The notes under the pieces were generated by a model. The model searched no databases, was not told the origin of the DNA, and saw only the letters and a list, made by a program, of their open reading frames with translations. Shown here one piece after another: positions 1-62,607 of a DNA stretch of 64,000 nt (its first letter is position 1; the number at the start of each line of letters is the position of its first letter). The translations under genes and the position numbers were made by a program. This DNA comes from Rhizaria sp. SCN 62-66 (Eukaryota): assembly GCA_001724265.1 (NCBI GenBank), contig MEDY01000268.1:1-64000 (forward strand), given 5' to 3'.

Positions 1-1
1 T

Positions 2-706
2 ACCGACGCAGTCTCGCTCGTGGCGCTGCAGGCGGACGTCTACAACCCGGGCTCAGCTAAGCGCGCGCGGTTTTTGCTGCTGGTCGCGCCCGACGACGCG
101 CGGCTGCCGAGCCACGCGATGCACTTCCGCGCGGCCACTGCCCGCGGCGCCACGGGGTGGTACGTGCACCGCTGCTTCCGTCCGCCGGGGCAGCCCGCGG
201 GGGCCGCACTGCCGTATCTGACGCTTCACAGCAAGCACGCGCCCTGCGTTACGGGGCCCATCGCGCCGGTGCCCGACGACATCGTCTACGGCGAACACGC
301 ACCCGCGGCGGCGGACGCTGAGTATGCGCCCGGCACGGTGCTGGTGCGGCCGTGGGCCGTGCGGCCTGCGCCCCGCGTTGGCGGCTGGGGCGCGAGCGAT
401 CTGCCCACGTTCGTGGTGTACCGGCCGTGCGCGGCGCACCTGCTGCCGGGCGCGGTGCCCGTCGGCCACGTTGTGTCGTGCACAGGCGGAGATGATGGCG
501 ATTATGAGGAGGATTTTGATGAGCACGGAAACGGCCGTGACTGCGCGGGAAATAGCGCCGAGGGCTTGTTGTTTAACGACACTGCGCTTGCGTGCTTTGA
601 CGCGCTTGCCGCTGCGGACCACTGCGGCGGCAACGGCGAAGACAACCGCTCTAACCTTGAGTGCTGGGCTGCGATCGGGATCCCGTACTTTAAGCCCACT
701 CTATAA
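2..706 (+). CDS. 3' part of a hypothetical protein, open at the window edge
   Basis: GC-rich open frame from position 2 to TAA at 704-706, followed by an abrupt shift to AT-rich sequence. No family recognised. Confidence 0.55.
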   Translation, partial: TDAVSLVALQADVYNPGSAKRARFLLLVAPDDARLPSHAMHFRAATARGATGWYVHRCFRPPGQPAGAALPYLTLHSKHAPCVTGPIAPVPDDIVYGEHAPAAADAEYAPGTVLVRPWAVRPAPRVGGWGASDLPTFVVYRPCAAHLLPGAVPVGHVVSCTGGDDGDYEEDFDEHGNGRDCAGNSAEGLLFNDTALACFDALAAADHCGGNGEDNRSNLECWAAIGIPYFKPTL

Positions 707-1791
707 TATTAGAGTGCGCATTGTGTCTAGCCAGCTGTTCTATCGCTCAGCTTTAGTGTGCAAAGTATGTTGGCTTTCTCCTGCGCTTATCTATTTCGTG
801 CTGTTGGCTCTCGTGAACATTGAGCCTGACATCTTTTTTGCCGTGACAAGATATTCAACTGAATCACAATTATCAATGGCATTGCCTGCTTTTCAAAAGC
901 TGTTAATAGAGTCGATCATGCGACAATTTTAGAGCATTTTTTTCATCGACTTTTGTTCTAAGCGTAACAATCTTTGTGTGTCAAGTACATGTACCGTACG
1001 TACCTGTATATGAATTTACTCATCTACCCTCCAGCGCATTTAGTCGACATACTAGTATTCGTCTGGGAGAAAAGCTTTCAAAAGCGGTTAAATCCCTGTT
1101 ATGTTTATGAAATACAGCGTTAGCAGTGAAACACTACGTATAATCTCTTGGATAGTTTATTCCCTCATACTTAGCACACATGGAACACATCGAACGGTAA
1201 AGTCGATCAGAATTCGTAATTGTGTAGGATAGAGCTATAGGTATGCATTTTTTGTCATACTTCACCGAAAAAATATATAGCTTTAAAACAAATTTGTTCA
1301 TAATTGAACGTAAAAATGTGCTTTCAGTGTTTTGATGGACTGACAGTCAACATTTGGAAACCAAAATTGAGGAAACCAAAATTGATTCTATTGGGATCTC
1401 TCCCAAATCAGTGGGATGCGTACGTGTCACTCAGCGTACAGTACGATATGATTCTTCTCCAGTCCGGGGGCCATCATGTTCAGGCAACAAAACAGTATAT
1501 TCAAATCAGCATCGCGGCGGAGTACATAAATCTTGTTACTCACTCGCGTTCGTCTAATTAACGATCTGTACGAGTCTTTGACAATTGGGCCGTGGCCTGT
1601 AGCAACAGATTCGCGCCATATTGCATTACTTACATGGGATTACGAGTTAATTAGTATAATTATTGGTGCTACACGAGTATTCAGCGAACTCGCTTGGGAT
1701 CACAATACGGAGTAGCGGGAGCAGTGCGCCGCCAAAAGATTGGCAGCAGAAGTGGCATCAGTTCAGCGCATTGGTGGTGACTGAACGGCCC

Positions 1792-3481
1792 TCACACGGT
1801 GTAGACAACCTTCTGGTAGAGGCCGCCAAAGAAGAGCTCCTTGGTGCGGCCTGTAATGCGCGCGGCATCGACTGGCGCAATGAAGGCGTCGATCTCGTGC
1901 TCCCACAGGTCGTCCGCGAATGGCTCCAGGTGCTTGTTGACTGGGAGGAAATGCGAGGGGGCAGACGGTTCGACAGGATTGAACAAGAGCAGAGAAGGGA
2001 GAGAATGAGCGAGATAGCACAAGGACAAACATCGTTAGTTGAAAACACGTCAACAACCAATAGCAAAGCCACACATATACAAGATGAGGGAATGCTTGAA
2101 CAGATTTCGTCGAAAAACAGCGGGTTGTCCCTTAGGAGTCAAGACATACCAAGACGCATGATAGGCTTAACCGGGTTCACACTGCTGGGCTAGTGGTAGT
2201 CAACAAAGACAAGCTTGGCGCCCGGCTGTGCGACGCGGAAGGCCTCGGAGATGATGCGGCGGCGCACGTCCTCGGGCACCTCGTGCATCAGGAAGAAGGA
2301 CAGCACGAACCCGAACTCGCGGTCGCTGGCGAGGAAAACGAAGGCAAAGAGGCACAAAAACAGTGGCGTTTGACAAAAAAATCAAATAAAATTAGCCACA
2401 GTACCAAAAGAAGCTATTTCAAGCAAGAGAGTAGTCAGATAACCAAATCAGACGCGAGTCAATCAAGTGATAGAGCTGCATGGTACGAAACAGGTATGGC
2501 AGCATTCAAAAACATCGCACAATTGATACGGTAATGCGGCGCTCGCCGCGCGTGCATAACACCCGTCTCGCGCACGTACCCGTAGCAGCTCATGTTAACT
2601 GCATCACCCTGGCGCAGCGTGAACCGACGCGCGTCCTTAACCGTCGCAGAATTGGCGCCGCTGCCACCGCTGCTGCCGCTGCTGCTGCTGCTGCTGCTGG
2701 TGTAAGCGCGATCCATAAAGATCTTGCTCGTCTCTGCCTCAGCCGCCGTCGCTGCCGCCGCAGTGGCGGCGGGCGCGGCGAGCGGGGCCCGCGCGTGCTC
2801 TGCGTCAACCTTGCGCGCGACGATGTCGAGCTGCACGGTCGAGATGTCGACGATCTCCAGCCGCGCGCCGGGCTCGAGCGCGGAGAAGAGGGCGGGCGAC
2901 ACGCTGCCGTACGCGCATGCAATCTGCAGACAGTCCCCGTTTACCGCGGGCGCGGCAGTACCGGTCTTGGTAGCGGCGGCGTTTTTGGCCGCGTCGACGT
3001 GGGCGCGGTACTCGGCGACGGCGGCGTCGCGCAGGCGGTCATAGTTGCCCCAGAGGATCATGTTGACAACAAAAGGGTGATCAAAAACCTTGGGCGACCA
3101 GGGCTGCAGGTAGGCCCACCAGTAGACGCGCTTCATGTAGTCGGGCATGGCCGCCACGGGTGCGAAAGCCGGGTCAGCCAGCGGCGATGCGAAGTGCTCG
3201 AACGGCGTCGCCGGCATCGGGATAGACGAGGATGCCTTCGCCAGCGAGAGAAGTGGCGGCACGGCCGTCGCAGACAACGACGCGGCCGCGGAAGGGACGC
3301 CCGCGTGAGAGGCGGTCGCTGCGGGCGCGGCGGCGGCGGCGGGCGCGGCGGCAGCGGCAGCGAAGGCTGTGCGTGGGACACTGGCGACGCGCAGAGGAGC
3401 CACAGACAGTGCAGATGAGCTGCGCAGAGGCACAGCGCGCGCTAGACTGCCTAAAAGACGCCCCAAACCACGGCTCGCCAT
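1792..3481 (-). CDS. rquA: Rhodoquinone biosynthesis protein RquA with predicted mitochondrial presequence; 3 exons (3481-2580, 2325-2150, 1940-1792), about 408 aa, in-frame TAG at 2190-2192
   Basis: RquA-type motifs PDYMKRVYWWAY, VFDHPFVVNMILWGNY, LQIACAYG, FFLMHEVPED, VFVDYH*P, LEPFADDLW and GGLYQKVV. Splice phases join correctly (GG|C, G|TC). Arg/Ser/Ala/Leu-rich N-terminus without acidic residues. Ends in TGA. Confidence 0.9.
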
Positions 3482-3940
3482 GAGTCTATCTACAACAGTG
3501 AAGTGATAAAGAGGTAGACGGACAAATGCAAGTCAGTTGTGAAGACGCTGATGTTACTAGAGCGTATCTTCAGGAGTAGATATCACATGAGAAACAGACT
3601 TATATTACATAAAAAAATGTTAAGCAAAATATAAAAGCCAGGATGAAGTAGAATACGAAGATTGATTCGCTATTCACTGTCAGAGGACGCCACGCAACAA
3701 AGCAATTGGTCGACAATACGTCACCCTCCTCTGTCGCGACTGCAGTCCCCCTGTTTCCGCCAAGAAGGTGTGACCAGGAGGGTCAGGAAAAAGTAGAATC
3801 TGTGAAACAAATTGGTGTATTGTTGTTGTTGATCGTTTACAGTGTATTGCCAGCAAGGCCGTGGCCATCTAAACTTATTCACGACAGATTTAGCGCATAT
3901 ACTGCGATATTCCTGATTTGCGGCGCGGTTGTTTGTGTGC

Positions 3941-4522
3941 TCACTCAGACATCGCAACGGGCGCGGCGGCGGCGGGCTCGGCGAGCGTTACGAGGGTGAT
4001 GTTGTCGCCCTTGAGCATCATGCGCCCAATAGCCTTAGACGTGTCCTTTTTAGTGTTGATCTGCGCGGGCGAATGAGCGATGATATGGAAGAGTGATGGT
4101 GTGAGCTAGTAAAGAGGGAAAGATAGCAAATGAGGCGAGATGAAAGGGAAAGCTGCGTACCTCCTGCGCGTTGTCGAGGACGACATTCATGAACTCGTCA
4201 AAACCAATGATCACACCCTCGAGGTAGGTGTCCGTGTGCTCGACGAGCCAGATGCGGACGCGCGATTTCTAGGGAGGTGAAGAACGGGGCGAAAAGAGAT
4301 TGAGAGAGTGAGCAGGCCGTTAGAGAACAGAAGGGAGAGAGGCGCTGTGCAAGAAAGAGTCGTTAACAAAGCAGAGCATGCAGATATAGTAAAAAAACAA
4401 GCACAAGTACACATCACATGGGTAATTGGTTTACGTACAGCCTGGAGGAAGCGGAAGAGGACGTTGACAGGAAGGACGGTGGCCTTCTGCTTCTTAGTGG
4501 TGGCGGCAATGTCGACAGACAT
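3941..4522 (-). CDS. SNRPE: Small nuclear ribonucleoprotein E (SmE); 3 exons (4522-4439, 4268-4161, 4060-3941), 103 aa
   Basis: Spliced translation PVNVLFRFLQA-KSRVRIWLVEHTDTYLEGVIIGFDEFMNVVLDNAQE-INTKKDTSKAIGRMMLKGDNITLV gives the SmE Sm1/Sm2 motifs. Not present as a whole in the ORF track. Ends in TGA. Confidence 0.93.
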
Positions 4523-4983
4523 GGTGTGGCGTGCGATCGAGGCTTTGATTTAAATCCCTTTACAAATATAGCGCAGGTGAAAACGCAATGGAAACGCGCA
4601 AAGTGGCGAAATTACAATTGGCGAAGACAATCTCCCACAAATCAACCGACAAAATCAGCCCGCGGACCCAGCTGCTGCGTCCAGCAACTCGGCCTTTTTT
4701 CGGAACTGCTTCGGCAGACTGGCTGGACACCAACAGCAACCCTGCCTTTGGACGTCTCTAAGTCAATATATAGTCCGTCATTGAATATGTGACACATGCT
4801 TTCGAATTTAACATCACATCTATTTGCTACTCTGGAAATTGAGCTGTTTGGCATACTAATCCTGCAACATTGAAGGGCTTAGAACTGACGGCCGTTTTTC
4901 CCCCTTCCTCTCTTCTCTCTCGGCCTTTCCTTTTCTCCTTACAGACTCTTCAAAAAGCTTCCTCAACCATTTTCGGCGCGCCA

Positions 4984-7900
4984 ATGTTCCATCTTGGCGC
5001 CGCGGCGCGCGACATGGTGATGGTGCACGAGCAGATGACGATCTGGCAGCTTAAGCTGCGAATCCAGGACCGCGACGGATACGTGGCGCAGGAGTTCGAG
5101 CTGCACCGCCAGCTCTCCTCCACCTCCTCAGTCTCGACTTCTTCCGCGCTGCCGTCGTCCTCGCGCGGCCACGGGGCCGCGGCGAGCGAGCGGTTTACGA
5201 CTGGCTCGCTGACCGTGGTGTCTGTGATGGTGCACAACGACCAGACGCTGCGCGAACTTGGTATCACCGCCGAAACCCCTGAGCCGCTCTACATCGAGCT
5301 CATCCGTCCCCCTGTTGACGACACCATGCACGGCTCCGGCGCCGCGAGTGGCGCCGGAAGTGGCGGCGCGGGGCACGCGCGCAGGGACTCGCTGCAGTTC
5401 GCGGGACAACCATCGCAGCTTGGACAGTCTGGACAGTCTGGACAATCGCAGTCTCAGTCGCAGCGTTTGCAGGCGCAGTCGTCGCCGTCGCAGTTGTCGC
5501 AGGATCAGCTGCTCGAGGTGTACGGCGCGCGCTTTGACGAGAGCTCTGTGCCGCCGGACCAGCTTTTCCCGCTGCTCGTCACGCTCGCGCGCGAAGGCGA
5601 CATCACGCGCACCGCACTCGTGCACACACCTGCACTCACACACAGCGCGCACAACGCTGCGGGCGGCGGGGCCGACTACAGTCCGCCGGGCTCGGCCGCG
5701 TCCGGCGCCGCGGGGGCGGTCCGCAGGCTGCCCAACGGGCTCTCGAACGCCTCCGCCTCCGCAGGCAACAACGGCAACGGCGGCGGCAATGCCTCAGGCC
5801 AACAACAACAACAACAAAAACAACAACAACACCAACAGCAGGCGTTTCTGACTGCGTCTGCGGCGGACCCGTACGCGTCGCTGGCCGTGGTATCCGGCCA
5901 CTACACGCTTGTTGGCGTCGACGGCACGCCCTTGCTCGCCGCTCTCGCCACCCCCGGTGGCAGCGGCGGCTCTGGCGGCGCTGGCGGCAACGCGGGCGGC
6001 GTCGACTACGAGGCCGTGCTCGCGCGCTCCCGCAGCCGCGCCGCCGCCGAGCGAAGGACTGCCACATCATCTGCAGCTTACCACGGCGCCGGCGGTGGTG
6101 CGGGCGACGGCGAGCCATTGCCGCGCATGTCGCCCGCGCTCAGCGGCGTCAGCGGCTCTAGTGAAGGGCCGGGCAGCAGCTCGCGCCTCGCCTCCACGGC
6201 CCTCGCACCCGCCGTAGCCCCCGCCGTCGTAGCCGCCGGCGTGCCGCCTTACGGCGCAGGCGTGCTCGCGCCCTCATTGCGCGCTTCGACAGGCTCCAAC
6301 GCCAGCGCAAGCTCTGCTGTTGCTGATGCTGCTGCTGCTGCTGCGTCATCAAACTCTAGCTCTAGTGCGAGCGCCGCCGTCGCCGCCCGCCGCGCGACCG
6401 CCTCACCCGCCGCTCACACCACAGGCGCTCCCGCTAGTGCTCACACAGGCGCTGGCGCTGCGATGGGCGGCGGCTCTGCGCTGGACGCGGCGCTGGCCGC
6501 GCTGGGCGCCGCGGCAGCCGTGGCGGAGGTGGCGCAGCTGGAGCACCGACAGGCGCACCACTACGCACGCGTGCACTCCGAGGCGCTCGACGGGTACCGG
6601 CTGCTGGCCGCGGGCGACGCCGCAGTGCCCGAGCACGTGCACCGCGTGGTGCTCCTCGCGCAGACGCCCAAACTCGCCACCACGGGCCCCGTCGGCGATC
6701 TGGCGCTCTTCTCCAGTCTGTCGTTCCTCGACGTGAGCGGCAACGCGCTGCCGCTGGCGCCGCTGGGCACGCTGCCCGCGCTCGAGCATCTAATGCTCGC
6801 CTGCAACGGGCTACGCGGGGCGGACCTGGTGCCCATCCCGGCCTCGGAGCCCGGCGGCGCACAGGAGCACGACGACAACTACAACGCCGCCGCCGCCGTC
6901 GCCGCGCTCGCAGTCAGGAGCGGCGGCGGAGGCGCGCACACGGGCGCGGGCGCCTTCGCTGATGTCGCCGCAGACAGTGGCGGCGCGGCGGTGTCGGGCC
7001 GCGCCCGCCGCGCGCTGCGGCGCCAGCGGCGGCTGGTTCGACGTCGCGCCGCCGCGGCCGCGCTGGCGGAGGTGCGCGCACGCGTCGTCGCCCGCTCCGG
7101 CGGCACGTCCGAGGAGGTCGCCGCTGCTGCGGTGCCGGATCCCGTCTCCGGCGACGACATCGACCTCGACGCAGAAGCAGCAGCGCAAGGAACCGGGGGT
7201 GGCGGCGGCGTGCGCGGTACGCCTGGGCACGCGTTCGACGGGGACATGTCGCTCTACGGCGACTCGTCCACCGACTCTGAGCCTGAGGGCGACGCCGCTG
7301 GCGCGGGCGCTGGCGGCCCCGACGCGGGCGGCCTGAAGAAGGCCTAGAGCGTCGACGTGTCGGCCGCCGGTGCCACTGACGGCAGCGGCGGCGACGGGTT
7401 CGGACCGGAGGGCTCTGCGATTGCGGGTTCGGCGTCGGGCGCGGCCGGTCTGGGCGTCGCGGGCGCGGGCGGCGAGGAGGCCGGCGCCGCGCACTACGCG
7501 CTCTTCAGCTCCGACATCCGCCGCGATGAGCTCGAGCAGGCCCGCTCTGCCGCCGCGGCGGCCGCGGCCGCCGCGCGCGCCAAAGCCGGCGGCAATAACG
7601 ATGGCGACGGCGACGCGGAGGACGAGGCGGACGAGGAAGCGGTGGCGCTGCTGGCCGCGCGTAACGCGGCGGCGGCGGCGGTGCGGCGGCCCCGCGCGGC
7701 GCGGCGCGAGCGTTTGCACCGCGGGCGCGCGCGGCTCGCGGCGGCAGCGCTCTCGCTGTCGGCCGCGGCGAGCGCCGAGGAGGTCTGGGCCGTCACGCGC
7801 GACATCCGCGCCTCGGCCGAGCCCGCGGCGCTCGAGGCCGCGCTGCGCCTTGGCTGGCCTGACGTCGTGGCCGCGCGCACCGCGCACGGCGAGGGACTAT

Positions 7901-10353
7901 CGGTGCCCGCGCGCGGCGACGCGGGCGCCGAGGCGCTGCGGCAGCTGCGTGAGCTGCAGCGCGCAGAGGCGTTTCTTGCGGCATACCCACCCGCGACGCT
8001 CGCGCCCATGGTCGGCTTCGGCGCTTTGCTCTCGCTCGACCTCAGCTACAACGCGCTGCCGCCCGCGGCCGTGCTGCAGCTCGCAGCGCTGCCGCGTCTC
8101 CAGGAACTCAGGCTTGCCGGCAACGACTTGCGCTTTCTCCCGGCGGATTTAAGCGCTTTCCGCGCGCTTCGCAGGCTGTCATTGCGCCGGAACCTGCTCG
8201 GCGGCGCCTCGCTGCTCCAGTCAAACAACACCGGCGGCAGCAAGAGCGGCAGCTTCAGCGCCAGCGCGAGCGGCGCGCCCGCCGAGAGCGAGTCCGCGGT
8301 GTGGGAGCCCGACGCTGTGCAGCTGCAGCTGGCACTGTACCACTCGCTGGCGTCGCTGCCGGCGCTGGAAGAGCTCGACTTGAGCGAGAACAACCTCACT
8401 CTGTTCCCGTCGCCTGACGCGCTTGAGGCCTTCGCGCGCCGCGGGCGCCAGTCTGCGCTGACGTCAGCGCCCGCTGTGGCGCGCTTCGTGACGGCCGCGC
8501 TGGGCGCCGCGGCGGGCGCGGCCGTGCAGCAGCGCTTCGTGGCGAACCGGCGCGCACGCGAGGCTCGCCGCGCCGGTGCCGCGGGGCTGCCGCTCAAGGA
8601 GCCCTGGGAAGAGGCGCTGCCGCCCCACGCGTCCGGCGCAGAACGGCTACGGGCGAAGCGCGAGTACGAGCGCGACCAGCTCCGCAGCCACACCGCGGCC
8701 GCAAATGCTAACGCTAGCGCCAGCGGCAACGCTAGCGTTAAGGCGAGCATTCTCGTCCTGCGCTCTGCCGGGTCGGTGCTGGCGAGCACTGCCGAGGGAG
8801 TTGAGGAGGAGGAGAACAGCGGCAACTGCGGCGCCACGGCTGCTGAGGTGGACATGGGCATGCCCGTGTTCCCGCGGCTGAGCGTGCTGAACCTGTCGAT
8901 CAACCACATTGCGAGCGAGCACGCGCTCGTCGGACTGGGTGTACTGCGCGCGCTGCGCTGGGTCGACGTGCGCGGCAATGTCTTTAACGCCGCCATTAAC
9001 ACGCAGCTGCACTCGCGCCTCCCGCCGCTCGCCGTGGCATTTCCCGTGCTCGCGCGCTTCGTCGTGCAGCAGGCCGGTGCGTCACTCGTAGTGGCCAACC
9101 CGCGGCCCGCGCCCGCGCCCGGACAGGAGAACGACCACATCATGGTCCCCGGCCGCACATCGCGCACAGCGGCGCTGCCCGCGCAGTCGCGATCGCAGCA
9201 ACAGCAGCTGGTGCACGACGACTGGCTGGCGGCAGATCCCGGCTCCGCCCCGCTGACCGCCCCCGGCACTGCGGGCAGACGCGGGGGTTCCGCCGCCTCT
9301 GCCGCGGCGGCTCCAGCGGCGCCTGAAAACGCGCGGTGGACCGTGCCGGCGCAGTCCCGCGTGGGCACCACCGGCACCGTCACCGTCAGTTCTCACCCCA
9401 ACAACACTGGCGTTTTGACCAACTATGACTCGGGCCGCACCAGCGGCGTCGTCGCGGGCTCCGGCGCTGCGCACACCAAGGGGGGCGCGAGCGGCGCTGC
9501 GGATGAGCTGCGGTACATGCTGGCCGCGGGCAGCGCGGACGTGTCGGGCTTGCTGGCGGGCTCGCCCTACGCCGCAGTGCTGGTGCAAGCCGACGCCGAG
9601 GACGAGCAGCGCTGGCGCATGCAGCGCGCGGGCGCTCTACCGCCGCAGCCGCGCGGGGCGGTCACCACCGCGCAGCTGCGCGCCTCGCTGCGCCCGCACG
9701 TTCCGCCCGCCGTGCGCGGCGCGCGCGCGGCCGAGCGCCATCAGCGCCAGCAGCACAAGCAGCTGCAGCAGCAACGGCAACGGCAGCAGCAGCGGGGGTT
9801 GGCGACTGCGGGTGAGAACGCGCTCGCATTTACGCCCGCTGCCGGCCGCGCCGAGGCCACTGCGGCCGCCGTGGCCGCGCGTGCCGCCACCACGGGCCGC
9901 TTTGCTAACTCGGCGTCGATGTCGGCATCGACGGCGTCGCTGGGCTCTGGAGCGGGCCGCGCAGCGTTGTACGCGCGTGTTGACGCCGCCGTGGACTCGC
10001 TCGACGCCGCGCTGCGCAGTGCGGACACGGCGCAGGGCTACGTGGGCGGCAACGCGGCCGCCGCGGCGGTGCTCCCGCAGCACACGCAGACCGTCCGTGC
10101 GCGCGCCCGCGGCGTTGGAAGTGACCACGGTCACGGACAGCATGGCCACAGCCGGCTTGAGGCGCTGGGCCTGCGCGAGTCGGTTCAGTGTGCGGGCGGG
10201 GACCCGGCGGACAGCGGCGTGTTCGTGTCGCGGCAGATGGCGCGCGCGGAGGAACGCCGCGAGAAGGAGAAGCGCGCACACGACGTCGAGATCCTGCTGC
10301 GCACGGTCAATACGGCGCTCGCAGAGAGCCTCTGGGGACAGGACGCGCAGTGA
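4984..10353 (+). CDS. Large leucine-rich-repeat protein (possibly XRRA1-like) with a possible N-terminal ubiquitin-like segment; about 1789 aa if the TAG at 7345-7347 is read through
   Basis: ORFs 4870-7347 and 7357-10353 share a frame and are separated only by TAG AGC GTC GAC. LRR units lie on both sides (LSFLDVSGNAL, LEHLMLACNGL; LLSLDLSYNAL, LQELRLAGNDL, LEELDLSENNL, LSVLNLSINHI). The start codon is uncertain and an upstream exon is possible. Confidence 0.7.
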
Positions 10354-10805
10354 GATCTTGGCGGATATGCAGCGCTGATGAGCACTAACTGATTTATTTT
10401 TATAGTCATACTCTATATTTAGTATTAAAATACACATAGTTTCATATTTTCTCTGATTAGTCTCTGTTATCTCCTCTTTGCTGAACTCTCCCTGCTTTTC
10501 CACGTGCACGGCGTGTGCCTCGTAGGTGCGAGAGAGCTCGAATCAGACCACGATCAAGGCTTCAAAATTACATCGTTCAAATGGGGTAATTCTGCGTCAA
10601 TCAGCGGGCGCGGTCGATTTCTAGATTGATCTCTACATTTAATTTCTTTTTCTATTTTTACATTGCGAAAAGACTGTATAGAGTCCTCAGGCGAAGCGCT
10701 TAATATACACCCGCGACCACCCATCTCGAGCCGTTGTCCGTCCCGCGCTTTTCTGGCCCGAGCGGAGGCTTCCCCTTTTCCCAGCCCGCGTTTGCCCCGC
10801 GCAGA

Positions 10806-13800
10806 ATGTTTTCCCCGAGCCTGGCCGTGGGCCCCGCGTCCCCGTCGCAGGTGGCACTGCAGCGATCCGCGCAGATCCAGGCCGACGTGTTCAGCCAGAC
10901 GCAGGAGGACGTCATCACGGCCTGCATGGTGCGCCCGGGCGCCGCTGTCGCCGCGGACGGCTCTAAGGGCCACGAGAACCTCTTCGGCCGTGAGGCTCAG
11001 GCCGTGCCGGTGATGTTGGTACTTACGGTTACCCGCACACGCGGCGGGTACCGCGATCCGAAGCTGCACTACGTCAAGGTCAAGGGCCCCACCAAGTGGT
11101 CCGTCAAGAACTTCCGCTTGCTCAAGACGATCGACCGCGTGCTCATCTCGCAGACGGACTCGCACTCGTTTAACTACTTCACCGTCGGCGACGGGCGCCG
11201 CTACGACTGGCACGTCACGGGACAGGACGCCTCGATGCGCGACGAGTTCCTCTGGTGGATGCTGCATTCGATGCGCTTCTTCGCGTCGTCAAAGGCCAGC
11301 TCCGCCGCCGGCGCGCTCGCGCCACCGCTGCCCAACAACAACATCGAGGAGGCCGTGCTCAACAACCTCCTTGGCAAGTGGTCCCGCGTTATGATGGTAC
11401 GTCTGCTCCCCGCTTTCGACTCGGATAGCTAGCTAGCAACACGCTTCGCGCAGTGTCTTTGCAGTGTCTTCCGTGCTTCGTGCAGCTTCTAAAGCTACCC
11501 TCTCGACGTTGTATATTTGAATCATTGCTGCCCAATGTATAGTATCTGTGTTGCTATTAAATCTGCACCTCGCACGTTCAACCACAACCGTTTTCTTTCT
11601 TGTTCCTCACCGTATTCGTTTCCCTTTGCCCAGAACACGCCCGAGCCTGCCGAGATCGGCCTGGCGCTGTCAGCGGTGCAGCGTGCGATCGTGACGAGCG
11701 TGGTCTCCGCGGACCGCGCCGCGCACATCCAGCGCTCAGCCGCGCGTACCCAGGTTTCGGGTGAGAGCTCAGTGACTCTGCCGTCGCTCACTGCAGCCGA
11801 AGCCGAGGACATCGACTACTTCCTGCGCCAGTTCGGCATGGCTCCTGACGCTGACGCCGCCGCCTCTGCGGACGCGCTCTCCGACGCCGCGCTGCTCGCG
11901 GGGCTTAGCACTGACTCCATGGGCTCTGGCTCAGGCACAGTCTCCGGGTCCGGCTGGACTGATGTGGACAGGCTCGAGGCTGCGCTGCAGGCGCGGCTGG
12001 CGCAAGTCGAGCGCGAGTCGGCGCGGTGCGTTTTCCAGGGCGCGGTCTCCCCGCCGCACGAGGTCGCCGTGCGCATGCTGGGGCAGGCGATCGACTCACT
12101 CGAAGAGGTGGGCGTGTGGGCCGCCGCGCACGACGCGTCGCTCACGCGCATGGCCGTCGGCATGGAGAAGATTGAGGCGCGCTCCGAGGCGCTCGAGACG
12201 GAGGAGCGCAACTACGCGGCGCTGCGCGGCGTGCTCGAGTCGTTCCTTGACGAAGTTCTGCTTTCGGACCGCGTCGTCGCGATCCTGCAGAAACCGGACT
12301 TCGACGGGGACCTGGAGGGTGTTCTGGCGGCGGTGCAGCAGCTGACGACGGTGCTTCAGTCGAAGCGGCTCAACGACCCGCCCACGGCCGCCGTCGCCGC
12401 CGCGGCCGCCGCCGCCGTTGCCGCCGCCGCGGCCGCCGCCGCCGCGTCGGGCAAGAAGCAGAAGAAGGAGAAGAAAGAGAAGAAGGCGGACAAGAAGGAC
12501 AAGAAGAGCAAGGCGGGCGGTGCAGACGGCGACGCCAGCGAGCCTGATAATGACGACACCGGCGCCAAGACGGGCCCCGCCGCCGCGCTGGCAGCGCTGT
12601 CGCCGCTGGCGCAGACCGCGCTCATCGCCACCGCGCCCGCGCGCGCCGCCGCCGCCGCCGCCGAGGCCGCCAACGCCAGCGCGGGCGCGGGCGCGGGCGT
12701 TGGCAACGGCACTGTGGCCGCCGCAAGCAGTAGTGCGCAGACGGTGTCGCTGGCGGGGCTGGCGAGCATGACTGCGCTGCACAGCCAGCGGCTGCTGTAC
12801 CGCGAACTGCAGCTGTCCTTCACGGCGCGCGCCGACGCAATGCTGCGCGCCAAGATCGACGAGCTTGCTAAGTGGGGCGCGCAAAAGATCGTCTCGGAGG
12901 CACAGGTACGGCGAGAAATCGCAAATGATAGCTTTTTTAAAGCTATAACTTCTTGTTGACATCAACTCGGCTTTTTGAATTTCATTTTTATCTGGTAGCC
13001 CATGTCAACTCACATGTTCTCGCGCTGTCTTTTTCGTTCTATTTGTTGTTGTATTCTCACAGGCGCGCGTGATCGCGAACGGGAGCCTGAGCGAGGTTCT
13101 GAAGACGAAGCTCGAGTACAAGCTGAGCGAGACCAAGTACCGCACGATCCACTCGAAGCTCATCGCCTTCAAGCGCCTCGTCGCTTTGCTGGAGCAGCTA
13201 CAGCCCGGCTCGGCCGCGGCGCTGGCGGCGCACTACAGCGCCCGCATGAAGCCGGTCTACGACCACGACGTGGACTCCCTCATGCGCAAGCTCAAGGAAG
13301 CCGTCGTGGCGTCTTCGGTCGACTGCCGGCTGCGGTCGTGCCCCGAGGTTCCGCTCGCGAAGCTGCGCTCGTTCCAGCAGACGGCGGTGCAGCAGGCGCG
13401 TACGCGCTCCCACGCGGCGCCCGCGGCGGCCGGGCGGATGCTTTTCTCCGACGCCGTGGCTTTCGCGCTTGACCGGCTCTACGCAGTCACGATGGAGGAG
13501 CAGGCGTTCTTCGCGCACTGCTTTGGCATCGACGAGGACGCTGTCGCCGAGGTCGTCTCGCTGCCCGTCGACAAGATCCTTAAGGGCGGTGCCGCCAGTT
13601 CGGGCGCCAACGCGGCCCTGACCGGCGGCGGCGCCGGCGGTGGCAATGTGGTGGGCGGCGTCACGGACGCGTTCGCGCTCACAGTCACCCCGCCCTCTGT
13701 TGCAACGGCTGCAGCCGGCGGCGCCGCTGCGGCTGGGACGCCGGGGACGACGATCACAGGGGTCACGGCGTCGGGCTTGCCCTCGACGCTGCAGATGCAG

Positions 13801-14188
13801 TACCTCGAAGGCGACGCAACTTCCGCCGCGAGCGCCACTGCGCCTGCGGGTGTGAAGCCGAGCGACACAGCCGCGCCGGCGGCCGAGCGCGCAGCCGTGC
13901 GATCGTCCGTCCCTCTGGCCACGCAGGTGTCGCTGCTGCTGGCGCGCAAGCAGGGCAAGCTCACGGCGCTGGTCTCACGCACGCTCGCCGCGGCCGTCCC
14001 CGCGCTGACCGAGCTTGTGATGGTGGGCGCTAAGTCCGACGCGTTCAGCATCATCCGCGCGCTGGGCCTGTTTGAGGCCGTGGTGGCCAAGGCATCGCCC
14101 GCGGGCGCCGAGCTCAGTCTTGTCGCGCAGGGCGTGCACGTCGACGACGTCGAGGACGTCATCGCCGCGCTCGAGAGCGACCGCAAGC

Positions 14189-14222
<34 letters not shown>

Positions 14223-16459: not shown

Positions 16460-16495
<36 letters not shown>

Positions 16496-16520
16496 GATGC
16501 CTAGTGAGCCCGACTGGTGA
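10806..16520 (+). CDS. SEC3: Exocyst subunit Sec3/EXOC1; 6 exons (10806-11396, 11634-12905, 13063-14396, 14572-14938, 15123-15341, 15477-16520), about 1608 aa
   Basis: N-terminal PH-like region, coiled coil MEKIEARSEALETEERNYAALRGVLESFL and C-terminal KYEAVCTMENAHYY resemble Sec3. All five introns are GTACG...AG and keep the frame. Ends in TGA. Confidence 0.75.
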
Positions 16521-20476: not shown

Positions 20477-20956
20477 GGGCTTCTCAGAGTGACTGTGAGC
20501 GTATAATATGCTGACAGCTGACGAGATGCCGTTACGAAACGGCCGCGCGTCTATGAAGAGTGAATGAATCACCAGAATGATATTGACGTTTATAAAGCAA
20601 ATTGAAGTCTTGAGTATGTAACGTGCGTTTGATCGATAGATTCTTAAACCAATACACACAGTGATTTGATTTCTAGCAACGATATCTCTGTTTCGCTGAG
20701 CGCGTAACAAAAAGTTACATTCGGGTGCTTGTGAGAAAGAGACGAAAGTACGATGGATATATTACATTATTCGGGTTTTATTATTATTATATTATTATTA
20801 CTTTCGTCACCAGAAAAGGAACATTAAGTAAATCACCTTCTCATTCACTAGGCCAAAGCGCCGCAGAGCATTTGCCTCCTCGTACAAGATCACTCTCCAA
20901 TCAATAGAATAGACACAGAGTAATAGAACATGCGCATATTTACAAGGCCGGTCGGC

Positions 20957-22525
20957 TTAGAGGCGGGCGTTCTTGGGCATGTACTTCATGGTCTGCTTCA
21001 TGCCGAGGTCGAGCATGATCTCCTCAGAGCCTCCGAGGATAGCGGCGTACTTGACGGCGCGCTGGAAGCGCTCGATGACCTGGCCCATGCCGGTGCGCGT
21101 GATGGCGCGACCGCCGAAGACCTGGCACGCCTTCTCGGAGATGTCGAGCGCGACGCGCGTGGCCTGGTACTTGCACAGCGCGATGGGGCCCGCGAGGTAG
21201 CGCGTCTGCTCCGCGTAAGTCATCTTGCACATCTGGTACGTGATGTTCTCGGTCCAATTGTACACGGACTCGAGCTGCGCGACCATCTGGCCCAGCTTCT
21301 CGCGGATCACGGGCTGCGCGATGAGCGGGCGGCCGAAGACGATGCGCTGATGTGCCCACTTGAGGCACTCCTCGACAACAAGGCGCGCGCCGCGCAGCAC
21401 GCCGACGATGATCATCCAGCGCTCGTGGTTGAAGTTGGCCATGATGCACTTGAAGCCCTCGTTCTCCTTGCCGAGCAGGTTCTCGACGGGCACCTTGACG
21501 TTGTCGAAGGTGACGAACGCGGTGCCGGCAGAGGGCGAGTAGGACGTGATGATCTTCTCGGTGGCGAGGCCCTCGGAGCGCTCAATCATGAGCAGCGAGA
21601 CACCCTTGGCGCCGGCCTCGGCGGGGCCGGTGCGCACGGCAGTGACGAAGTAGTCGGCAAACGAGCCGTTGGTGATCCACTTCTTGGTGCCGTTGACGAT
21701 GTAGAACTTGCCACAGGGGGACTTGGTGGCCGTGGTGCGGATGGCGGCGACGTCGGAGCCAGCAAAGGCCTCGGAGATGGCGAGGCAGATGCGCTTGTCA
21801 CCGGCGAGCACGGGGGGGACGAACTTGGCGATCGTCTCGGGGGAGCCGAAGTGGATGACGGGGGGCAGACCGATAACAAGACCGGCGCCCAGACCGTCGG
21901 TGGCGCCGGGGCAGCCCAGCTTGGCGATCTCCTCGTGCACGATGAGCTCGTGGAAGAAGGAGAAGTCCTTGGGCGCGATGCCGCCGGGGAGGCCGTTGGG
22001 GGTGAGGGTGAGCGCGGGGCCGGGGCCGATGCGGCCGGCCCAAATACCGGCCTGGCCGAGCTTCTGGAAGAGCTCCAGCGAGGGCTCCTTGCCTGACTCC
22101 TCGAGCTGGAAGACCTGCTGGCCGATGATCTCCTCGAGCGTCTTACGCACGGCGGCGCGGAAGGCGACGTGGGACTCGGTGAAGTAGGCAGACTTCATGC
22201 CCATCCAGGCGGAGGACTCGGAGAAAGGAACGCCCGAGAAGGACGCGGGGGCAGGCCAGAGGTTGGCCGCGGCGGCCTTCTCCTCGCCGGCGATGACGCC
22301 GACGACGAGGCGCTCGTACTTGCGGAGCACGTCGACGCGGTGCATGGCGAGAAACTCCTTGGTGGCGTCCTTGCCGGCGAGCTCGACGAGCACGTGGCGG
22401 CCACCAGGGTGGAACTTGGCGAACGTCTTGAGCTGGTACACCTTGGCGTTGATGATCACGAGCAGGTCCTCCTTGCTCGCGGCGGCAACCTCCGCGCGGG
22501 TATAGGTCTTAAGCGGCTGACTCAT
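20957..22525 (-). CDS. Acyl-CoA dehydrogenase with N-terminal cytochrome b5-like heme-binding domain, 522 aa, C-terminal -ARL
   Basis: b5 motif FAKFHPGG...AGKDATKEF. ACAD motifs CLAISEAFAGSDV, YIVNGTKKWITNG, FNHERW, CQVFGGRA and ILGGSEEIM. Intronless, ends in TAA. Confidence 0.92.
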   Translation of the reverse strand: MSQPLKTYTRAEVAAASKEDLLVIINAKVYQLKTFAKFHPGGRHVLVELAGKDATKEFLAMHRVDVLRKYERLVVGVIAGEEKAAAANLWPAPASFSGVPFSESSAWMGMKSAYFTESHVAFRAAVRKTLEEIIGQQVFQLEESGKEPSLELFQKLGQAGIWAGRIGPGPALTLTPNGLPGGIAPKDFSFFHELIVHEEIAKLGCPGATDGLGAGLVIGLPPVIHFGSPETIAKFVPPVLAGDKRICLAISEAFAGSDVAAIRTTATKSPCGKFYIVNGTKKWITNGSFADYFVTAVRTGPAEAGAKGVSLLMIERSEGLATEKIITSYSPSAGTAFVTFDNVKVPVENLLGKENEGFKCIMANFNHERWMIIVGVLRGARLVVEECLKWAHQRIVFGRPLIAQPVIREKLGQMVAQLESVYNWTENITYQMCKMTYAEQTRYLAGPIALCKYQATRVALDISEKACQVFGGRAITRTGMGQVIERFQRAVKYAAILGGSEEIMLDLGMKQTMKYMPKNARL

Positions 22526-36665: not shown

Positions 36666-39600
36666 ATGCCTCGCATCGTTTTTCACGCGCGGCTCCTGGC
36701 TTTGACAGCGGGCGCAGCTCTTCTGACACTCATCTCCGCTCCCTGGGCTTTCGTGACTGCCACCCATGTAGCTGGCTCAAGCTCGACGACCGCTGCCGCC
36801 GCGCCTATTGGTCTCGAGGGTGAGTCATTTCACGAGAGCGTCGTGCTTGACCCGCTCCCCGACCACAACACGCTTACCTTGTTCCAGTTTACCATGACGC
36901 ACCCCGTCTCCGACCGTAGCAGTGCAGGTACCAGTGCTTCTTCTTCTTCTTCTTCGTCCTCGTCTTACTCCGCGTTCCCGCGCGCGCTGGGCGAGCTGCT
37001 GGATGCGGCGGGGCCCGCATACGTGCGCCTGACGCTCACACAGGGCCGTTGGCACTCCGACCGCTGGGGACCGCGCTACGTCTCGAGCTACAACCCCGCG
37101 CCTCCAGTCACAGGCAACAGCAGCAATGCGACGGAGCAGAGGGACTCGGTCCTGCCGGCGCCGCTGGACGGGCTTGACACGCGTCCCGCCCCGCCGGGCG
37201 CGGTGCTCGACGTTGCGTTCCCTCCTTTGTTCACCCCCAGTAACAGCAGCAGTGCGGGAGCGCAGCAGAGTGCGCGCAACGGCGGTGATCTGCGGCCGCA
37301 GATGACGGCACGCGAGGGCCAGGCGTACGCCGCGCTCACGGGCGGACTCGCGGGGCTGTTTTGCACCTCGCTGACTGTGCTGTCCACTGGTAAAGATGTC
37401 GCTGCTGTCCTCACGCCCTCTGCAGCCGCCCACGGTCACTCTGCTGCTCACAGTCACTCTGCTCACGGTCATTCGCCGGCGTGGGTGTTCCGCGCGAGTC
37501 TCCCGACCGAGGCCGTGTGCACCGAGAACCTCTCCGCGGCGACGCGTCTGCTGCCGTGCCGCGCGCACTCCGGACTGGCTGCGCTTGTCAAGGCCGCGAA
37601 CGTGCTCGCCGCAAACAGCTATCTCTCCATCGCACTCACGGCCTCGCGCCAGCAGGGCTTCTCGCACCGGCAGGACTCGCAACGCCAGCAGGCGGCGCTG
37701 TCGCTTTGGCGTGTGAGTGTGACGGTGGCCGCGGTCGTGCCCACGGTTACGCTCGTGTCGCCCACGCTCGGCTACACGCCCGCTGGCGGGCTCGCGAAAG
37801 CCGCTGCGGCCACGGCCGGCTCCGACGGCTCCGTCATCTCCCTCCTCGAAGCCTGGTCCCGCACCACCCGCGCTAGCGGCAGCAAAGGCGCGAACTCCGC
37901 GTCGTTTGCAGTGGAGCGCTGCCCCGTTGCGGCGGCGTCGGCCGTGTGGTTCCACCTCAACCCGTGGCTAGTGGCCCACGCGGCTGCGCGCCGCGACGGA
38001 TACGTCGCGCTGCCCGCCGCGCCCACCGCGGCCTACATTACTGCGGGCGCAGGTGCGGACGTCAGCGCTGACGTCAGCAAGGCGAGCTTGACGTGGGGCG
38101 TTCCCTTGCACACTCTGCCGTTCAGCGCTCTGCAGTCCGGCGCTGGCGTCATCAGTGCGCAGCAGTCGATCACGCTGTCGATGGCCCGCGGCAGCGGCGG
38201 CGGCCTTGTGATCGGCCCTCCGCAGACGGCACCAGCGGCTGCGAGCGGCATTAACGCGGTGGCAGTGTGCTCGCTGTGGGCGCAGTACGATCTCCTTACG
38301 CACGCAAACAACGACAACAGCAGCGCCGCTGCTGCGGGGGTTGGTGTTCCTGTGTTCGCTGTCAACCACCGCGCCGTCCGCGTCGCGCCCCCCATGGCCA
38401 CCGCGGCCGTCGTTGCGCGCGCCGCCGCTCTCCCGGGCACCGCCGGCTCTAGCGCAAGCACTAGCGCAGGCGCCAACACAGGCGCGGTCGCGGACGCTGG
38501 CTTGACTGTGGGCGGCGACAATATCAACATCGCTGTGGAGGCCTCGAAGCGGCTTAACTTTGACTCGCAACTGCAGCACCAGGGCCCGCCCGTGGTGGCG
38601 TCGGCCGCGGTTACGGGGACGAGTCTGCGCCACAGCAGCCTCAAAATCCGCTTTGAGACCGACGCCCGCGCCAGTCAGTACTTGGGCGCCGCGGGCAGTG
38701 CGACCGCGGAAGTCGACGGCGGGTTTGTGGTACAGGCGACAGTGGTGCTGCCCTGGTGGGTGGGCGCCGTGTTCACGCACGAGATCTCCACTTCCGTCTC
38801 TGTCGCCACGGCGTCCACCGCGAAGCCAGCTTCTGTTGCTTCTGATGCTGCTGGTGCTGCTGCTGCGGTCAAGACAGCGCCGGCTGTGTCCGAGCAGCAG
38901 CACCGCGGTGGCGTGGCGTTGTACTACCACAACCCGTTCTTGCGCGCGCTGACGGTCCGCGACCGCGCGCACAGCGCGGCGTGGCGCGCGGCGGCGACGT
39001 TCCTGTCCGAGGAGAGCGGGACGCCACCCAACACCGCGCTGGTGCGCCAGTTGGGCCGCTCGCGTCCCGCCGCCGCCGAGGCCGTGCCAGTCAACTGGGC
39101 AGAGCTGTTGGTGAGCAAGAAAAACGAGCAGCGCCGCAGCGATGAGGCTGACCAGCTGCGCACCGCGCGCCGCGTCGCGCTACACGAGCAACAACAACAG
39201 TAGCAGCAGCAGCAGCGACAACAACAACAGGAAAAGAAGAAGGGCGGTGCAGGCAGCTCAAGCGACGCGGCTCGTGGGACGCTGGGCCGGATTGGCTCGC
39301 TAGATACGGTCGCAGAGAGCCAGGTCGTCGCCGTGTGGATCCAGCGGCCCGAGCCCGCGCCCGTGTTGTCGAGTCTGCTCGCGCGCGCCGTACTCGCACT
39401 GCTGCCCGAGAGCAATCTCAGCGCGCTAAGTACCCCCTTAGACAGCGCGCGCGCGCCGACCGTGGTGCACATCTTCGCGACCGTGCCCTTCGTCTCCCAG
39501 CGCATTCTGGCGGCTGCCGACGACGACAACAGCATTGGCGCCACTGTGCGCGCGGCAGTGGAGGTCGAGGTGCCGTTCGAGAAGGCACTGCTGACGTTGG

Positions 39601-43581: not shown

Positions 43582-43582
<1 letters not shown>

Positions 43583-51400: not shown

Positions 51401-52608
51401 TTTGTACGAATGTCAATCTTTTCACAAAAGTATGGGCTGCCAAAAGTGGGAGTTTGAAGACGAATATTGACGCCGGATATGAACGTTTTGCAATCGTGAC
51501 GAAGCAACCCCGACCAACAGTTTTGAGATCTGACGAGCACCAACACATATTCAAAGATATTCAGCGCCCTATAACGTAGTTAAGAAAGTTTGTTCAGGAT
51601 TACTTTATTTGCGTATGCATGATTTACGAATACTTGCATAATTTTTCTTAAAATAACGAATTTACGACAAGAAGTGCCATTTTATGCCGGACTACCTCGT
51701 TTTTTCACTCCACCGCGCAAACACATGTGTTGATTAATGCGATTGTTTGGGCCACATTTATATTTTTGAACAATTTCATAGAACTTTTGCAATTTAAAAA
51801 CATTCGTAATATGTAAAACCTTGCGTAATTTTAGTTGGCAGTGTATATTTGTACTATCAGATAGAAAAATCACTCCCCCTCCAAAGCCTATGAGGTGTTT
51901 GACCTATGGTATCTGCAGCTGCCAGTCATACGGACTTCGCAATAAGAGGAGCTGGTGCTCCCCACTCACCCGACTACACCGACATGCGTGGGATCGAACT
52001 TCTGCGTTGTCAAACAGGGACTCCATCACACCAAACACAGCATCCGTCACGGGTTACACATGGTGTATTAATACACTTGTTGTCGCCACGTGTTTGCTGA
52101 GCTTGGTACTCGCGCTCTTCGACGCCTTCGCGATGCTCGTGGCGATGCTCGCGTTTCTCAGCCTCGCGTAGTCGATCTACAACGCCGCCTTGCTCTGGCC
52201 CTCGGTGCCGCATTGAACCTGACCTGATCAGGGAGGGTAGGCATTGGCACCTACGACAGATGACATACAAAATCTTACACATAAGCATGAGAACAAACGA
52301 AGAATCCGATTTAAACGATGTATTTTGCGCCAGAAAGTATCGCAAAAATTCTCGACATCTCTCAAGTTGGTCCCACCACGAGCGCAACTCAGACCACCGA
52401 ATTGATAACAGGGTAAGTTGCGTGAAACACCGCTGGACTGCGTCGCCGTCGCCAAATGGGGACGACATCTTCGTAAAGCATCGTGTTAATGTCGAAAAAA
52501 ACGTTGTGTTTATATTAATCCTATGATTATGATATAAAATTTTATGGAAAATTTACGTCATTTCCAATCCGCACATCGTTACGGTGGTAAGCAGAGCACT
52601 ACACAGCC

Positions 52609-60364: not shown

Positions 60365-62607
60365 TCACTGGTAGAACGCGCTGCGCGCAGGCGCCTTAAT
60401 GCCCGCGACCCGGCGCGGCGGCGCGCGCTCCAAGTACGCCAGAGTGTCGTACCACTCGCACTTGGCCGCGGCCTCTTCCGTCATTCCACGAGCACTGCCG
60501 TTCTCGCTGTTGCTATCACTGGCAGCCTTGCAAGTGCGTGCTGCAATGCGGGCGCTGCGGGCGACGTAGGGCAGCATGGGTAGCCCGTCGGGCCCCAGTT
60601 CCTCCTTGCCCTCCGCACTCGCACTCGCCTTCGGACTGGCACTGGCGTTACATTCAGCGCTGTTCGTGACACAACGCGCCTTGTTGACCGCGACGCCGTC
60701 GCGCATGCCAATGCTGACGCAGTAGTGCCCCTGAATGAGGTGCCACTCCTCGAACTCGTCGAAGATCTCGATCCGCTCCGTCCGCTGCAGCACCCCCCGC
60801 TCGATGTAGTAGCCGTACACGTCGTTCATGCTCCACGCGCCGTGCCGCGCGAAGCCCAGCTCGAGGAAGCGTCGCCGCTGCGCCTTGAGGTCCGGGTAGG
60901 CAGGCAGCCCAAGCAGCGGGCAGCCGCGCGCCGCGAGGTTGGCCATCATGGTGCGCCCGAACGGGTCGTTGGGGTGGATCTGTTCGTATGTGGCCAGCAC
61001 CACGGGCCCCGTAAACGCGCCAACGACGCCCGAGCCCAGGACCGTGGCGGTGACTGGCGCGCCGTTGCTGTTGCTGGTGTCGGCGCTGGCCACGGTCGTC
61101 GTCTTGAGCACCGTCTCCGTCTCCGCGTCAGCAGCTGCGCTGTTGCTGTTGCTGTTGCTGTTGTCGGTCTCGCTCGCGCTCGCAGCCGCCGCAGCCGCTG
61201 CTGCAGCGGGAGTGGGCAGGGAGGCGACGTACGACAGCACGCCGGCGCTATCGTGCGGCTTCATGTACACGAGCACACACTCGGACAGAAACAGCGTCGG
61301 AGCCGCGAAGTTAAGCCGCGTGTGCTGAGTCAACAAAGCGTGGAGCGCGGGGATGTCGCGCAAGTCGGCGCCCACGAGCGCAAAGTCGCGCCAGCGGCCG
61401 CGCGCCGCGCCGAGCTCAGGCAACTGCGACTATGACGGTGTCGAGGAGGAGGACGACGACGACGACGATGACGAGGCAGATCCGCTACTGCATGAGTCGG
61501 CGTATGCAATGTTGAAGCAGTTGGGGTTGGGCGCGGCGAGGTGTGTCTGGAGCTCAGGCGTGGCGGCGATGATCGCGAGCTTCTGCGCCACAGACGACTC
61601 GAAGTCGATCTCGACGTAGTAGTCTGGGGTCTGCCGGGGGTCACCGGTGGCCTTGAGGCGCCAGTAGGTGGTGTCAAAGCCCGCGCCCAGAGACACAACC
61701 TGAGAAGTCAAACAAAACAACACAACATAGCAGAACAGAAAATGGTTGTGAGAAGCGAGATGTGAGCATGTGAGAGTACAACTTATCTGATGGATGAGAA
61801 GCACTTAAACACGTGCAAGATATAAACGGTCAGTGAATGGTCAAGGTTTCGCGCTTAACGCGGGCGGCGTACCTGTGCAGGAAGCCCGTGCGCGCGCGAG
61901 ACGGCGACGAACTCCTGGAGCAGCTGGTCGAGCGCCTGCACGCGGGAGAAGTACCCGCGGTTGATGAGCGGGGACCGCCGCACGAAGGCTGGCGGGAGAA
62001 GTGTCGCGGGCGCGGGCGCGGGGGCCGGCGCGGGCACAGTGGTGGCCGCGGATGAGGAGGACGACGCCGTGGCGGCGGAGCCGCCCAGGGGAGCGGGCTG
62101 GACCGGGGCGGGCTGCGCCGGGGCAGCATCAGTCTCGGGAGCGGCAGCAGAGGCAGCGGCGGGGGTTGGGGTCTGAGGTGCGCGGGGGCGGGTGTTGGGC
62201 AGCGCCGGGTGGGCAAAAAAGGTGATAAAGTCGTCCTTGAAGTAGCCCAGCTGCGCCGCGGACCTGTGGCGGGACAGCGAAACAGCGGAGCGCGTGTGAC
62301 GAGATGAGCGAAGAAGCAAGGAAAGATGACGAATTGCGGCGTGACAAGAGGACAGAGAGTGAGCGCGGCCGAGGAGATATATATAAAATAGGCAAGATAA
62401 CCGATGTTGACAAAAATGATGGCTCGGCGGACATTGAAACGGTCGGCGCAGTGTGCAAGGGGAGGATTGCAAGAAGAGGGATGATGCGACTAGAGGATTG
62501 ACATACAGCTTTGAGAGAATAGCATCGTTGGCGGTCTTGCGGACCTCGAGGCCAGCATTGACACCGGCAGCGGCGTCCTCCAAACCCATGGGGCCGGTGG
62601 CTTGCAT
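60365..62607 (-). CDS. LCMT1: Leucine carboxyl methyltransferase (LCMT1/Ppm1); 3 exons (62607-62507, 62263-61873, 61699-60365), about 608 aa, in-frame TAG at 61430-61432
   Basis: TANDAILSKLSAAQLGYFKDDF, RRSPLINRGYFSRV, QVVSLGAGFDT and YVEIDF lie before the TAG. ALVGADLRD, PTLFLSECVLVYM, YEQIHPNDPFG and EIFDEFEEWHLIQGHYC lie after it. Ends in TGA. Confidence 0.9.

Follow-up and report, generated by a model that had tools for sequence, protein, structure and literature searches.

An in-frame TAG in an intact rquA gene points to a nuclear genetic code where UAG alone has become a sense codon

This locus raises the question of whether a TAG triplet that lies in frame within a conserved motif of a eukaryotic rquA gene ends the protein or encodes an amino acid. 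RquA is the enzyme that converts ubiquinone to rhodoquinone. The gene is located on the minus strand of the first 64,000 nucleotides of contig MEDY01000268.1 (GenBank assembly GCA_001724265.1, filed as Rhizaria sp. SCN 62-66), the stretch that we analyzed as a whole and refer to as the window. The TAG is found at 2192..2190 and represents codon 346 of 408. Because rquA is intact around this TAG, three neighbouring genes also carry an in-frame TAG, no in-frame TAA or TGA occurs, and no gene end in the window is a TAG, we hold that the triplet must be read as an amino acid. Quite probably, the organism uses a nuclear code in which UAG alone has changed from stop to sense while UAA and UGA are still stops, which makes codon 346 of rquA a sense codon like any other.

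The rquA gene consists of three exons (3481-1792; 1,227 bases, corresponding to 408 codons and a stop), and both introns are low in G+C (Table 1). The first-pass annotation had placed exon 2 at 2150..2325, and these limits proved to be exact. The three exons were scanned separately and matched the NCBIfam family NF038261 (RquA, 218 positions) collinearly, exon 2 without a gap. Each single exon scored below the curated cut-off of 175, whereas the rough sum of their scores was about 216 bits; Pfam gave just weak generic methyltransferase matches. The window protein was then aligned with 120 database homologues. In the motif-I block L-Q-x-A-C-x-Y-G, the fixed residues are each present in 120/120 homologues, and all of them are kept in the window protein, as are Y-W-W-A-Y (120/120 homologues at each position) and F-F-L-x-H-E-x-P (119/120). 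A divergent motif I is the feature that separates RquA from UbiE-type methyltransferases (Stairs et al. 2018, PMC5953543). The protein is identical to its closest full-length homologue (P0007) at 43/55 positions of exon 2 and 34/48 positions of exon 3, and the TGA stop of rquA falls where the proteins of its relatives end. A protein search with exon 2 returned the window's own ORF (open reading frame) as its sole match.

The N-terminus of the protein is an Arg-rich stretch of about 94 residues that contains 7 R/K and no acidic residue, the first D/E being residue 95. By eye, these 94 residues look like a mitochondrial presequence, and all full-length eukaryotic RquA proteins have been reported with such a presequence (Stairs et al. 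2018, PMC5953543). If the TAG is a sense codon, the gene is predicted to encode a full-length, mitochondrion-targeted RquA of 408 residues. Judged by these sequence features, it is well supported that the rquA of the window is intact and functional, with a putative ubiquinone-to-rhodoquinone activity.

In exon 2, the TAG stands in the context V-F-V-D-Y-H, TAG, P-S-S-V-N-P-V-K-P-I-M-R-L. The first-pass annotation had recognized the conserved RquA motif VFVDYH*P here and had assigned the TAG to a folded domain. Both observations were borne out: the residues that flank the TAG are near-invariant among the 120 homologues (D 119, Y 116, H 114, and P 118), and the triplet itself occupies a match column of the RquA family profile. 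The family has exactly one residue where the TAG stands and stays collinear over the 13 codons that follow, which leaves no space for an intron at this site, as had been claimed. The column of the TAG is variable. It contains R in 94 of the 120 homologues, K in 9, L in 6, Q in 6, E in 2, and C and H in 1 each, with a gap in the remaining one.

The coding sequence downstream of the TAG is preserved. The downstream exon (1940..1792) had been described as intact, which agrees with its identity to P0007 given above, and the codon bias continues throughout it (log-likelihood ratio 35.9 over 69 codons). Among the columns with at least 90% conservation across the 120 homologues, 14/15 are kept downstream of the TAG and 50/66 upstream of it. 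A product ending at the TAG would be deprived of 62 well-conserved residues. These data bear on the explanation that rquA and the other TAG-bearing genes described below are pseudogenes or null alleles, in which GAG or CAG was converted to TAG in a single step. Close relatives do carry GAG at the rquA codon, as seen in L001, the one relative whose DNA was readable, and in a genome rich in G+C at third codon positions (GC3), no nonsense codon is reached more easily than TAG. However, the first-pass annotation had named other lesions as the mark of a pseudogene, and none was found in rquA. The splice sites are intact, and the TAG-bearing ORFs of 408, 1836, 1217, and 479 codons contain neither a frameshift nor a TAA or TGA. 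Moreover, the same TAG is present in contigs of another study, and it would be necessary for 4 of about 17 neighbouring genes to be dead at once, the gene of a glycosylphosphatidylinositol (GPI) transamidase subunit among them. We regard this explanation as very improbable.

The TAG is not an assembly slip. A contig of 1,337 bases (X4), obtained in a study other than the likely source of the window, covers 1189-2446 and carries the TAG, with a single difference at 2025 in intron 2. A second contig of 285 bases (X5), from a polyA RNA library, covers 2142-2426 and carries the TAG with zero differences. No differing letter was listed at 2190-2192, nor at 7345-7347, where a second in-frame TAG is located, in any of four runs. 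In addition, the table-11 ORF that ends at the rquA TAG (P0245, 55 residues) was recorded on 4 contigs. The probability that a sequencing or assembly error produced the triplet is negligible.

Both X4 and X5 run through intron sequence and thus confirm the DNA, not the mature mRNA. This leads to another explanation, according to which a change at the mRNA level, such as U-to-C editing to CAG, corrects the UAG, or unconventional processing removes it. It has in its favour that no spliced mRNA was seen; none of the 15 joints listed, out of 143, was a GT..AG joint at the rquA introns. On the other hand, the contig from the RNA library keeps the TAG, though unspliced, and removal of more than the codon would take away conserved residues, while the column is occupied by a residue in 119/119 homologues that extend over it. 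We know of no nuclear editing system of this kind, and we consider the odds of such a correction very slight.

Three further genes of the window contain one in-frame TAG each, bordered right away on either side by G+C-rich coding sequence (Table 1). One is a leucine-rich repeat (LRR) gene, one encodes Gpi16, which is the GPI transamidase subunit mentioned above, and one encodes a leucine carboxyl methyltransferase (LCM). The Pfam domains of Gpi16 and LCM each continue over the TAG in one frame, and in both cases the two halves exceeded the gathering cut-off when scanned separately. For Gpi16, 125.3 bits were obtained upstream of the TAG and 77.6 bits downstream of it (profile 459-545); for LCM, the upstream half matched profile positions 85-130 and the downstream half 125-186. 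In the LRR gene, the first Met occurs about 215 codons after the TAG, yet the coding signal restarts immediately. A TAG at 52169 could be a fifth sense codon or a real TAG stop, and a rival frame lies on the opposite strand.

Furthermore, stop triplets inside coding sequence were sought with a codon log-likelihood score trained on 13 long ORFs of the window that lack a TAG. The best coding segments, which amount to 14,909 codons, contained 4 TAG, 0 TAA, and 0 TGA, and nowhere in the window was a TAA or TGA found with coding sequence directly on both sides. A composition-only test with flanks of 30 codons flagged only the TAG at 7345. The rquA TAG, which is followed by just 13 codons of its exon, cannot pass this test; the support for the rquA TAG comes from homology. 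A comparison of ORF lengths with each stop made sense was uninformative, as G+C-rich DNA is open in many frames.

We then considered the triplets that do terminate genes. Gene ends were definable for 17 genes of the window, and these comprised 13 TGA, 4 TAA, and 0 TAG. As TAG accounts for 657 of the 3,114 stop triplets in the window, the chance of finding no TAG among 17 ends is approximately 0.79^17 = 0.02, which is meant as a crude yardstick. The position of one TAA could be verified with homologues. The protein of the cytochrome b5 / acyl-CoA dehydrogenase (ACAD) fusion gene ends in A/S-R/K-L, and so do 10/10 inspected homologues, 5 of which end in ARL like the window protein; we take this tail to be similar to the peroxisomal targeting signal PTS1. 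Because the ACAD TAA falls exactly where 10/10 inspected homologues end, TAA is still a genuine stop.

Several observations weigh against a sense reading of UAG and have to be set beside these results. The code change rests on 4 TAG codons, perhaps 5, of which 3 lie in low-complexity inserts. Only 2 of the 17 terminators, the TGA of rquA and the TAA of ACAD, were matched to homologues, the others being defined by the end of an ORF together with the loss of coding signal. TAG also stays far below the frequency that a neutral synonym of CAG would have, with a TAG/CAG ratio of 4/455 as compared with 96/540 for TTG/CTG; accordingly, UAG is a recent capture, is inefficiently decoded, or is no more than a leaky stop. 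No tRNA was found in the 64-kb window, which gave no match to an Rfam family either, and no eRF1 was noticed among the scanned ORFs of the window. As to the transcript, the X5 contig is unspliced over the TAG and possibly represents DNA or pre-mRNA.

The rarity of TAG is what would be expected if its use were costly. UAG might formally be a stop that is read through, or be ambiguous or context-dependent, with a near-cognate tRNA acting in place of a dedicated tRNA(CUA) and yielding full-length protein at some efficiency. In line with this, TAG makes up 4/14,909 codons and less than 1% of CAG, and a suppressor tRNA was not seen in the window. However, the TAGs interrupt presumably essential domains such as that of Gpi16, and 0/17 gene ends of the window are TAG. 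The codons that follow the four TAGs are CCC, AGC, CAG, and TCG, so no common 3' context is present. Four mid-ORF TAGs in about 17 genes are, to our knowledge, far above the level of programmed readthrough. Readthrough or ambiguity is therefore an improbable account of the data, and we prefer a code in which UAG alone is sense. By analogy with known cases, a tRNA with the anticodon CUA would decode UAG in such a code, and eRF1 would have lost the recognition of UAG.

Which amino acid does UAG encode? Provided that TAG is sense, it probably stands for Gln, a reading that corresponds to NCBI table 15. Gln is favoured by the location of the Gpi16 TAG within a run of Gln codons, which is the sole site-specific pointer. 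The surrounding codons are CAA CAA CAA CAG TAG CAG CAG CAG CAG. Positions with four Q both before and after them occur 18 times in the coding sequence of the window and are occupied by Q (16), R (1), and TAG (1). Expressed per residue, 16/537 Gln were found in this context, as against 0/1,276 Leu and 0/552 Glu.

The TAG of rquA is the only one in an alignable column, and this column speaks less clearly. The first-pass annotation had called the position polar or basic in homologues and compatible with Gln. Polar or basic it is, whereas Gln, although naturally present, is found in a minority of 6/120 homologues. Arg, in 94/120 homologues, and Glu, in the two closest ones (P0006 and P0007), count against Gln at this column. 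Thus, the earlier view of the TAG as a sense codon is supported by the intact gene, by the three further TAGs, and by the absence of TAG ends in the window, while the assignment to Gln is favoured rather than demonstrated.

The alternative is that TAG is sense and is read as Leu, as in the rhizarian exLh, or as Glu, as in some ciliates. Glu would agree with the two closest homologues at the rquA column, and its codon GAG is one step from TAG. Leu is as frequent as Gln in that column (6/120 homologues). In addition, a maximum-likelihood tree of ACAD placed the window protein in a 13-row clade (support 99/99) with environmental sequences, EukProt UN01312, and a protein that UniRef labels Lygus hesperus, which is the insect whose transcriptome held exLh. 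The clade is a hint of rhizarian affinity, and if the organism of the window is related to exLh, Leu must be taken seriously. Nevertheless, the poly-Gln context of the Gpi16 TAG argues against both Leu and Glu. With regard to Leu, we infer that the Lygus-labelled protein comes from exLh, but the tree is based on a single gene and the Lygus sequence is not the nearest neighbour of the window protein. The density of UAG in exLh, with 384 in-frame UAG in 71 genes, is very different, and Guttulinopsis, the closest sampled relative of exLh, is described as likely to keep the standard code (PMC5304391). We consider Leu or Glu unlikely, and Gln remains the preferred reading.

Few nuclear codes are known to change UAG and keep UAA as a stop; those described are the codes of Iotanema, the rhizarian exLh, and some phyllopharyngean ciliates (PMC5304391, PMC11687900). 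In the nuclear code of Iotanema spirale, UAG encodes Gln and accounts for about 8% of Gln codons, and translation ends at UAA and UGA (Panek et al. 2017, PMC5304391). The window resembles this code in that UAG alone is sense, UAA is kept as a stop, and UAG is a minor codon that likely encodes Gln. The window differs from it in that UAG would represent less than 1% of Gln codons (4 against 455 CAG and 82 CAA) and in that the main stop is TGA (13/17) instead of TAA. Furthermore, the organism of the window is G+C-rich, intron-bearing, and seen in metagenomes, and Gln is not set by conserved columns in its case. The rhizarian exLh (Sainouroidea), found in the transcriptome of Lygus hesperus, decodes UAG as Leu and terminates at UAA and UGA, with about five in-frame UAG per gene, mostly at conserved Leu positions (Panek et al. 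2017, PMC5304391). It shares with the window the reassignment of UAG only, the two stops, and the membership of a Lygus-labelled protein in the ACAD clade; in contrast, the window has 4-5 TAGs in about 17 genes, one of them in a poly-Gln run.

Codes in which both UAA and UAG (UAR) encode Gln are reported for many ciliates, hexamitin diplomonads, Ulvophyceae, Streblomastix, and Amoeboaphelidium (PMC5304391, PMC11687900). These codes have the change of UAG from stop to Gln in common with the reading proposed here, but they read UAA as Gln too, whereas in the window a TAA ends ACAD and no TAA is found in frame. A genuine TAA stop thus distinguishes the window from the common UAR = Gln codes. In ciliates, the macronuclear genome is rich in A+T and its introns are very short; in the window, by contrast, exons have 60-76% G+C and introns measure 200-250 bases. 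Some phyllopharyngean ciliates are described with a UAG-only reassignment to Gln or Leu (PMC11687900), and in this decoupling of UAG from UAA they are similar to the window.

The RquA of the window resembles the eukaryotic RquA proteins previously surveyed in being Class I S-adenosylmethionine (SAM)-methyltransferase-like with a divergent motif I, in its presequence-like N-terminus and spliceosomal introns, and in its origin from a low-oxygen microbe; unlike them, it contains long Ala/Ser-rich inserts (Stairs et al. 2018, PMC5953543). The main text of that survey mentions neither an in-frame stop nor a variant code, the terms 'stop codon', 'genetic code', and 'in-frame' each being absent from it, and among the papers listed in a literature search none combined RquA with genetic-code terms.

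The kind of code proposed here is already known, but the case would be new and would come from a G+C-rich, intron-bearing environmental eukaryote without a named close relative. It is interesting and not yet established, consisting of one 64-kb contig and four or five codons. A very rare UAG would bear on how stop codons are captured, and TGA as the main stop differs from the known cases. Tentatively, we suggest an independent, early-stage capture of UAG in an unsampled G+C-rich lineage of wastewater protists, possibly rhizarian, in which UAG has left the set of stops, makes up less than 1% of Gln codons, and is mostly confined to tolerant low-complexity inserts. We hold this to be possible rather than probable; if true, it would offer a rare view of a nuclear code while it is changing. 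Should the lineage be sainouroid, UAG may have lost its assignment a single time, after which sister lineages took it up for different amino acids.

The reading of UAG also has practical consequences. Gene calling with the standard code truncates the RquA of the window at residue 345 of 408, and the 55-residue fragment that ends at the TAG is indeed present in the database. The Gpi16, LCM, and LRR genes are split in the same way. Because standard-code calling truncates or splits these genes, surveys of rhodoquinone metabolism and of the gene content of wastewater protists would miscount such organisms.

Table 1. Positions in the window of the rquA exons and introns, of TAG triplets in other genes, and of the ACAD terminator
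Feature	Position	Strand	Remarks
rquA exon 1	2580..3481	-	ATG at 3481; RquA profile 1-115, 99.8 bits
rquA intron 1	2326..2579	-	GTACGT...CAG
rquA exon 2	2150..2325	-	CAG acceptor, GTATGT donor; RquA profile 115-170, 72.1 bits
rquA intron 2	1941..2149	-	GTATGT...CAG
rquA exon 3	1792..1940	-	TGA stop 1794..1792; RquA profile 174-217, 44.4 bits
In-frame TAG, LRR gene	7345..7347	+	codon 835 of the 1836-codon ORF 4843-10350; G+C-rich coding sequence on both sides
In-frame TAG, Gpi16 gene	39201..39203	+	codon 862 of the 1,217-codon ORF 36618-40268; inside a CAA/CAG poly-Gln run
In-frame TAG, LCM gene	61430..61432	-	codon 125 of the 479-codon exon, ORF 60368-61804; Ser-rich insert within the LCM domain
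Candidate fifth TAG	52169..52171	+	short hydrophobic ORF 51770-52213; followed by 14 GC3-rich codons, then TGA
TAA terminator, ACAD gene	20957..20959	-	placed by homologue C-termini

The window comes from an uncultured eukaryote and is a nuclear contig in which exons of 60-76% G+C alternate with low-G+C introns and spacers, and its introns follow the pattern GTAYGT...YAG. The runs that contain the contig are metagenomes of bioreactors, wastewater, and activated sludge. In the region 1-20000, most sequence pieces on the G+C-rich exons come from other organisms, and 96% of the pieces continue unlike the window. Two of the runs (X2 and X3) had identical record tables and depths over the same region and may be one data set filed twice. 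The ACAD fusion gene extends over 20960-22534 on the minus strand. Among named sequences, none exceeds about 63% identity to its protein, and no match was obtained when this protein was scanned against genome contigs and viral contigs.

A scan of metagenomes yielded 11 rquA loci, none of them from the organism of the window or a sister species. The best was L001 (46% identity), which is the contig of P0007, and the P0007 gene is intron-less. On the minus strand of L001, a 2,220-codon ORF at 13870-20529 ends in TAG, and the long ORFs of this contig have no internal TAG; the L001 organism probably keeps TAG as a stop.

Other stop triplets of the window were tried as sense codons and rejected. 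A TAA at 19103, flagged by a lenient flank test, falls within a gap that resembles an intron and separates two coding segments, one ending at 19003 and the next starting at 19118. Several TAG and TGA triplets flagged by the same test are on strands opposite genes, which is a mirror effect of GC3. The TAGs at 11430 and 31573 and those in an Sm-like gene are intronic or located at acceptors and are not coding. This Sm/LSm-like gene (3944-4549, minus strand, three exons) lies just upstream of rquA, and its introns, which begin with GTACGT or GTACGC and finish with TAG or CAG, served as a local splice reference. Finally, the region 40300-44300, about 4 kb with 46% G+C and without a long coding ORF, has a strong excess of A over T on the plus strand and includes a stretch of (A)34 at 43548-43581; as a spacer or intron of this contig, the region is unusually long.

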